Positions 61,971-62,075 of a DNA stretch of 64,000 bases are shown piece after piece; position 1 is the first letter of the stretch, and each line of letters opens with the position of its first letter. This DNA comes from Escherichia coli. GTDB lineage: Bacteria; Pseudomonadota; Gammaproteobacteria; Enterobacterales; Enterobacteriaceae. The translations under genes were made by a program, and so were the position numbers. The notes below the pieces were generated by a model. That model was not told the DNA's origin and ran no database searches. It worked only from the letters and a program-made list of their open reading frames with translations. The stretch lies in the NCBI RefSeq assembly GCF_048403405.1, contig NZ_CP183129.1; one strand, 5' to 3'.

Positions 61971-62075
61971 AAAAAAAGCCCATCGTGGGAGATGGGCAAA
62001 GACTACACACAGCAATTCGTTGTTTCACTCAGGGGATTTCCATGCTTATAAATCAATATGTTGATTTATAACCGT
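61971..62075 (-). ncRNA. rprA: RprA small regulatory RNA
   Basis: Minus strand reads ACGGTTATAAATCAACATATTGATTTATAAGCATGGAAATCCCCTGAGTGAAACAACGAATTGCTGTGTGTAGTCTTTGCCCATCTCCCACGATGGGCTTTTTTT, which I recognise as RprA including its terminator. Confidence 0.9.

Follow-up and report, generated by a model that had tools for sequence, protein, structure and literature searches.

Within the 64-kb stretch of Escherichia coli DNA analyzed in this study (hereafter the window), the gene encoding the small RNA RprA lies between ydiK and ydiL, in the gene order ydiK-rprA-ydiL-ydiM, which is canonical, with all four genes on the minus strand (Table 1). The original prediction had placed an exact RprA sequence between ydiK and a frameshifted ydiL, and both the identity and the position were borne out. 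When compared to the Rfam RprA model (RF00034, curated gathering score 70 bits), the minus strand from 62075 to 61968 scored 118.5 bits (E = 1.6e-16) over model positions 1-108, which is the full length. Alignment of 62075..61970 with rprA of strain MG1655 (b4431, NC_000913.3 1770372-1770477) found 106 of 106 bases identical, and the originally proposed alignment to reference sequences thus returned no mismatch to MG1655 RprA over 106 nt. Identity to MG1655 extends approximately 190 bp upstream of rprA. The length of the RNA is 105 nt in the classical description (61971-62075), 106 nt in MG1655, and 108 nt in Rfam and PGAP, and these values differ only by the number of tail U's counted. The ORFs and the annotated syntenic loci agree on the position between ydiK and ydiL, and rprA is annotated at the syntenic spot in the closest genomes, those of strains 7/2 and 4621. 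Of 5426 complete E. coli genomes, 5374 have one place that covers at least 80% of the 1.1-kb locus, and 5270 of 5424 E. coli records match the 163-nt segment comprising rprA and its promoter with at least 99% identity. The identification of rprA thus lies far beyond chance.

Table 1. Positions of the features discussed in the text (window coordinates unless a fetched locus is named)
Feature	Position	Strand	Basis or remark
ydiK, AI-2E family transporter, intact	62261..63373	-	370-aa ORF; annotated syntenic loci
ydiK hairpin, ahead of rprA promoter	62232-62254		inverted repeat
RcsB box TGAGACGAATCTGA (putative)	62111..62124	-	-49..-36 from RprA 5' end; exact 14-mer match
Weak -35 hexamer TCGACG (4/6), abuts RcsB box	62105..62110	-	read from sequence; placed from known +1
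-10 hexamer TACTAT (4/6), at -12..-7	62082..62087	-	read from sequence; identical in MG1655
rprA, RprA sRNA, 106 nt	61970..62075	-	+1 = A at 62075; RF00034, b4431 identity, synteny
RprA 5' stem-loop, RNA nt 1-35	62041..62076	-	inverted repeat, 16-nt arms, 88% complementary; MFE fold; Rfam structure line
Central region, RNA nt 32-72, complementary to rpoS leader	62004..62044	-	computed duplex
3' seed 23-mer ATTGCTGTGTGTAGTCTTTGCCC, RNA nt 60-82	61994..62016	-	upper-case block of Rfam consensus; most conserved part of family
Rho-independent terminator	61970..61997	-	stem 61997..61978 (7 bp, 5 G-C), T8 61977..61970; terminator scan, fold
ydiL, frameshifted, 356 nt versus 357	61477..61832	-	alignment with strain 7/2 and MG1655
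Frameshift site, coding-strand A6 versus A7 in relatives	61654..61659	-	plus-strand T6
ydiM	60164-61378	-	
Phe_leader	33317-33441	+	Rfam
STnc540	37137-37295	+	Rfam
RprA 3' module copies (fetched loci)	L020 2500-2602; L029 3455-3549; also L021-L028, L031-L230	L020 -; L029 +	window counterpart 61970-62016 (-)

An RcsB-type box is present in the upstream interval (62076-62150) in which it had been proposed to look for one. The 14-mer TGAGACGAATCTGA conforms to the RcsB homodimer consensus TN(G/A)GAN4TC(T/C)NA, has a single exact match within the window and none in 100 shuffles, and is identical to the 14-mer of the PrprA oligonucleotide from Salmonella that was crystallised together with RcsB (PMC7913699). 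On its own, the degenerate consensus is matched in the window about as often as expected by chance (3 found versus 2.66 expected); therefore, the box is supported by the exact match of the 14-mer and by where it lies. The consensus is also matched within spy (7604-7617, plus strand) and in the ppsR-ppsA intergenic region (45199-45212, plus strand), both probably without meaning. The hexamers TCGACG and TACTAT are separated by a 17-bp spacer, and a simple sigma-70 promoter scan did not report the rprA promoter because its 8/12 matches fall under the cut-off of 9/12; two matches that the scan did report, at 62215-62186, were set aside as chance-level occurrences (2 found, 1.0 expected). As read from the sequence, the rprA promoter is of the activator-dependent type, with a putative RcsB box beside a weak sigma-70 promoter.

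Both the minimum free energy fold and the Rfam structure line give RprA three hairpins, namely a long 5' stem-loop, a small central hairpin, and the terminator, whose stem and U-run are intact, as had been noted. The z-score of the fold (-1.99) is modest when taken alone. Pairing of RprA nt 32-72 with positions -135 to -93 of the MG1655 rpoS leader yielded a computed energy of -32.4 kcal/mol, compared to -23.9 +/- 3.3 kcal/mol for shuffled RprA, with 3 of 100 shuffles performing as well. This value comes from a windowed calculation with the MG1655 leader (the rpoS leader, rcsB, and hfq of the source strain lie outside the window), and a whole-molecule RNAduplex calculation gave a loop-ridden, meaningless structure. 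The duplex falls in a region already studied genetically, and 5407 of 5416 complete E. coli genomes contain an exact copy of the target segment of the rpoS leader. Because the fold z-score is modest and the duplex energy was equalled by some shuffles, the mechanism described below rests on identity with the experimentally studied RNA. The 3' seed ATTGCTGTGTGTAGTCTTTGCCC occurs once in the window, even with up to 4 mismatches allowed, and falls inside nt 60-97, the region that pairs with csgD mRNA (PMC3465796).

In the source strain, RprA would be expected to be expressed, bound by Hfq, and regulated in the manner of the identical K-12 and Salmonella RNA. The rprA gene is activated by the Rcs phosphorelay through RcsB, with CpxR as an activator and LrhA as a repressor (PMC5861431, PMC3465796). 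In the source strain, envelope stress would likewise act on the Rcs phosphorelay, an RcsB dimer on the box would switch on rprA, and CpxR and LrhA would act as a further activator and a repressor, respectively. RprA is known to open the self-inhibitory rpoS leader and, in Salmonella, also to activate ricI (PMC6202311); the central region of the Hfq-bound RNA, which is approximately 105 nt long, would thus be predicted to base-pair with the upstream arm of the rpoS leader hairpin responsible for inhibition, freeing the ribosome-binding site and leading to more sigma-S synthesis. In addition, csgD and ydaM (dgcM) are repressed by RprA through nt 28-45 and 60-97 (PMC3465796), which would tie envelope stress to biofilm control, and RNase E cleavage would yield the shorter 3' form described as RprA60-105 (PMC3465796, PMC6202311). 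The original prediction called RprA a key activator of rpoS. That description comes from the literature, in which Mika et al. (2012) describe the effect of RprA on sigma-S translation as weak (PMC3465796); repression of csgD and ydaM is among the better supported roles. The source strain has a wild-type RprA locus, and the Rcs-RprA-RpoS/CsgD circuit would therefore be expected to work as it does in K-12.

Every defining feature of the RprA family that can be checked in the sequence is present, which makes this a known gene in a known place. It is nearly certain that the locus is the chromosomal rprA of an E. coli strain, the same as that of the laboratory reference, with an RcsB-box promoter and complementarity to the rpoS leader, and no feature of the sequence speaks against this reading. 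That it might instead be a mobile-element look-alike of RprA or a small-protein gene is extremely improbable. Copies resembling the 3' half of RprA do exist on phages; however, these are without the 5' domain (at most 47% identity upstream), whereas the window is identical to b4431 over the full length, 5' domain included, and core-genome synteny is seen in more than 5370 genomes. As for a small protein, two mechanically called ORFs of 49 and 58 aa overlap rprA, and the 49-aa GTG ORF (61879-62028) begins within RprA. Neither matches an annotated gene, in keeping with the original statement that no ORF corresponds to RprA, and the 49-aa ORF crosses the terminator, so that the RNA would have no stop codon; it was rejected as coding because its frame reads on through the terminator. 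Outside E. coli, full-length rprA (106 nt, 98.1% identical to E. coli) was observed on four Klebsiella pneumoniae records labelled as plasmids (NZ_CP079158.1, NZ_CP079675.1, NZ_CP079608.1, NZ_CP132641.1; 110-144 kb), which may represent a plasmid-borne chromosomal segment or misassembly.

The downstream neighbor ydiL is disrupted in this sequence, as originally claimed, by the shortening of an A7 run to A6. The 118-aa ORF is split into a 65-aa product read from the ATG (59 native residues followed by NIFMPS) and a 41-aa C-terminal ORF. After repair of the frame, YdiL of the window can be aligned with Salmonella YdiL from end to end (PDB 1S4K; E = 4.6e-47) and also matches Aca2 structures (E approximately 1e-14), and the 65-aa fragment still matches PF08965. 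YdiL is an Aca2-like helix-turn-helix (HTH) protein of unknown function that is non-essential and was unexpressed in 22 conditions in Salmonella; Aca2 proteins are anti-CRISPR-associated repressors, and YdiL is predicted to be a DNA-binding regulator and perhaps an autorepressor (PMC8434428). By likeness to Aca2, the truncation would remove the dimer interface, which is formed by the C-terminal half (PMC8434428), and ydiL as written in the window reads as a pseudogene.

The closest complete genome, that of strain 4621 (NZ_CP103479.1), is separated from the window over the 64 kb by five SNPs (9037, 22318, 31859, 40020, and 63349) and two indels, both of which are 1-base changes in homopolymer length, one in espL1 and one in ydiL. 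The substitution at 31859 is absent from all three clone-mate Logan contigs as well and is therefore private to the source. The type III effector gene espL1, on the minus strand, is split into ORFs of 493 aa and 150 aa (28019-29500 and 27601-28053) by a T8 run at 28053-28060, where 4621 and most relatives have T7. The T8 allele is present in 2 of the 766 complete genomes having espL1 and in three Logan assemblies that are 1-3 SNPs from the window over 5-7 kb; because the allele is common to these near-identical clone-mate assemblies, espL1 is probably a real, clonal pseudogene. Elsewhere in the window, Rfam matches above the gathering score were found for the pheST leader (Phe_leader, 74.4 bits) and for STnc540 (67.4 bits), the latter overlapping the 3' end and terminator of ihfA, upstream of btuC.

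At the ydiL site, all of the closest relatives have A7, and the A6 allele, searched as the same 66-mer, is present in 1 of 5403 complete E. coli genomes. This genome, B7A, also has an adjacent ydiK annotated as frameshifted. In all, 211 contigs, which represent several unrelated E. coli backgrounds, encode the exact 65-aa truncated YdiL. Identity to the window ranges over 98.2-99.8% among the backgrounds of the ten carriers examined, indicating that the slip arose independently several times. Approximately half of these ten carriers are indel-ridden assemblies in which ydiJ, ydiK, or ydiM is fragmented. The other carriers have intact neighbors, and some are short-read Logan contigs (L006, L007) common to several samples, which indicates that the slip occurs and is inherited in some lineages. 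The A7 run of ydiL is thus a recurrent slippage site, both biological and technical.

There are two potential explanations for the frameshift in the window. We lean, if only slightly, toward a genuine mutation, private to the source strain, that has inactivated a dispensable gene at a slippage hot spot and has no connection with RprA. Recurrence of the same slip on backgrounds of independent origin argues for this explanation, as do the non-essential and unexpressed status of YdiL in Salmonella and the loss of the C-terminal dimerisation half after residue 59, whereas the absence of any carrier from the window's own clone among the ten contigs examined speaks against it. No complete RefSeq E. 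coli genome has both the ydiL A6 and the espL1 T8 allele. The other explanation, a homopolymer-length assembly error in a genome whose true ydiL is intact, is a serious possibility at somewhat under an even chance. The change is a 1-base loss within a homopolymer, the closest relatives are uniformly A7 although only five SNPs away, the one complete genome with the allele also has the adjoining ydiK annotated as frameshifted, and half of the examined carriers are visibly indel-ridden. However, the window itself is not indel-ridden, its other indel relative to 4621 is corroborated by independent clone-mate assemblies, and some of the contigs with the truncated product are short-read and have intact neighbors. 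It is therefore important that single-base homopolymer frameshifts in the window be interpreted only after read-level confirmation.

The original prediction also drew attention to an intact RprA beside a broken neighbor, a juxtaposition to which no meaning could be attached, since the frameshift is in a separate gene and may be a sequencing error. It is very improbable that the disruption of ydiL alters RprA output, either through regulation of rprA by YdiL or through read-through or polarity. The predicted DNA-binding nature of YdiL (PMC8434428) and the location of ydiL, which lies 137 nt beyond rprA and in the same orientation, would be compatible with such an effect, but a strong intrinsic terminator stands approximately 310 nt ahead of the frameshift, and neither rprA nor its promoter departs from the wild-type sequence at any base; on these grounds, no effect on RprA synthesis or function is expected. 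No connection between YdiL and rprA was found, either published in the searchable literature or computed. The disruption therefore amounts at most to the loss, at an A7 run prone to slippage, of one dispensable gene without a known function.

A stray partial match of the rprA query on a P1-like phage-plasmid was the first clue to relatives of the RprA 3' end on mobile elements. Look-alikes of RprA nt ~59-106 were found in unannotated gaps of Erwinia and Escherichia phages and of Enterobacter, Citrobacter, Klebsiella, and Pantoea plasmids, and in Salmonella phages the match to RprA is confined to the terminator (nt 76-107). When nine copies were aligned with RprA, ATTGCTGTGTGTAGTCTTTGCCC was invariant in eight, with variation in the terminator loop and inner stem, while the ninth, from a Salmonella phage, had only the terminator in common with RprA. 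All nine are sub-threshold matches to RF00034 (39-63 bits versus 70). An exact scan identified ATTGCTGTGTGTAGTCTTTGCCC in at least 120 IMG/VR contigs; the 5' part of RprA is absent from all of the IMG/VR contigs listed (at least 120), and among the copies listed there are 79 distinct variants, whose upstream sequences fall into several unrelated classes. Among 5426 complete E. coli genomes, at least 150 carry one particular variant class of the module, which is unannotated in every case. In a seed-independent sample, for which 80 loci were fetched via the downstream protein alone (65-100% aa identity; 78 usable), 74 of the 78 contained the 23-mer with no more than one mismatch (52 with none and 22 with one), compared to six mismatches for the best match in shuffled sequence. 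All 47 distinct module terminators fold to hairpins of at least 5 bp, and in one variant both the last C of GCCC and the base with which it pairs are changed.

The nearest substantial upstream ORF is a same-strand CI-type repressor (phrog_4, phrog_6201) in 61 of 115 loci, and conserved early genes are found downstream of the module. In phage LLS (PQ299149), a PL-like promoter right after the repressor gene would give a leader of approximately 370 nt ending at the module. No Rfam family reached its gathering score in six regions carrying the module, and no consistent conserved complementary target was found within +/-2.5 kb of the phage copies. Two other interpretations of the module were discarded. 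The proposal that the phage copies are attP cores, providing replacement 3' ends upon integration into rprA, was rejected because the LLS integrase is located 3.4 kb from the module, which lies inside the immunity region; the idea is also countered by occurrence of the module in non-integrating P1-like plasmids and in Erwinia Schitoviridae phages (the weaker match in Salmonella Schitoviridae covers the terminator only). The suggestion that the module always follows a tRNA was not confirmed, as ARAGORN found no adjacent tRNA and an Rfam tRNA match abuts the seed in only two plasmids. These two matches, both above the gathering score (L025 272-399 on a Citrobacter freundii plasmid and L027 297-395 on a Pantoea sp. 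plasmid; 32.5 and 45.1 bits), are unusually long (128 and 99 nt) and end exactly at the start of the RprA-like seed. In both plasmids a T-arm replaces the second hairpin of RprA and ARAGORN makes no tRNA call, and these cases may represent a tRNA-sRNA co-transcript.

A seed kept as sequence together with a terminator kept as structure is the pattern that would be expected of a trans-acting, Hfq-type sRNA module, and the module may act as an RprA mimic. Tentatively, and as a possibility rather than the expected outcome, the copies, which are widespread in temperate enterobacterial phages and P1-like phage-plasmids, may form an undescribed family, either of phage RNAs that imitate the processed 3' form of RprA and so reach the RprA regulon of the host (csgD, dgcM, ricI-type targets) or of modules from which RprA acquired its 3' domain. 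No description of a phage element that resembles, is related to, or mimics RprA, or of the seed sequence itself, was found in the searchable literature, which is thin on subscription journals. Should the phage copies prove to be functional sRNAs, lysogeny would act directly on the envelope-stress and biofilm circuits of the host, and RprA would be counted among the small number of core sRNAs that have relatives on mobile elements. The phage module may matter more than the rprA gene of the window itself.

The inducing signals of DsrA and ArcZ are low temperature and the aerobic/anaerobic shift, respectively. These two sRNAs differ from RprA in their inducing signals, are unrelated to it in sequence, and are encoded at other loci, with no Rfam match to either in the 64-kb window. 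DsrA and ArcZ resemble RprA as Hfq-dependent activators of rpoS translation that act on the same leader region by an anti-antisense mechanism (PMC5861431). Members of the YdiL/Aca2 family (PF08965) consist of a single chain of approximately 118 aa in which an N-terminal HTH is followed by a C-terminal dimerisation domain; the repaired ORF of the window matches 1S4K over its full length, whereas the product as written stops after 59 native residues. Relative to E. coli K-12 RprA (b4431), the sequence, promoter, RcsB box, terminator, and genomic position are all the same in the window, and the sole difference at the locus is the 1-base deletion in the downstream neighbor ydiL. The phage modules have in common with RprA the seed ATTGCTGTGTGTAGTCTTTGCCC followed by a GCCC/GGGC-anchored terminator hairpin and U-run; unlike RprA, they are without the 5' stem-loop, the rpoS-pairing region, and the RcsB-dependent promoter, and they are located in mobile elements, downstream of CI-type repressor genes or beside tRNA-like sequences.
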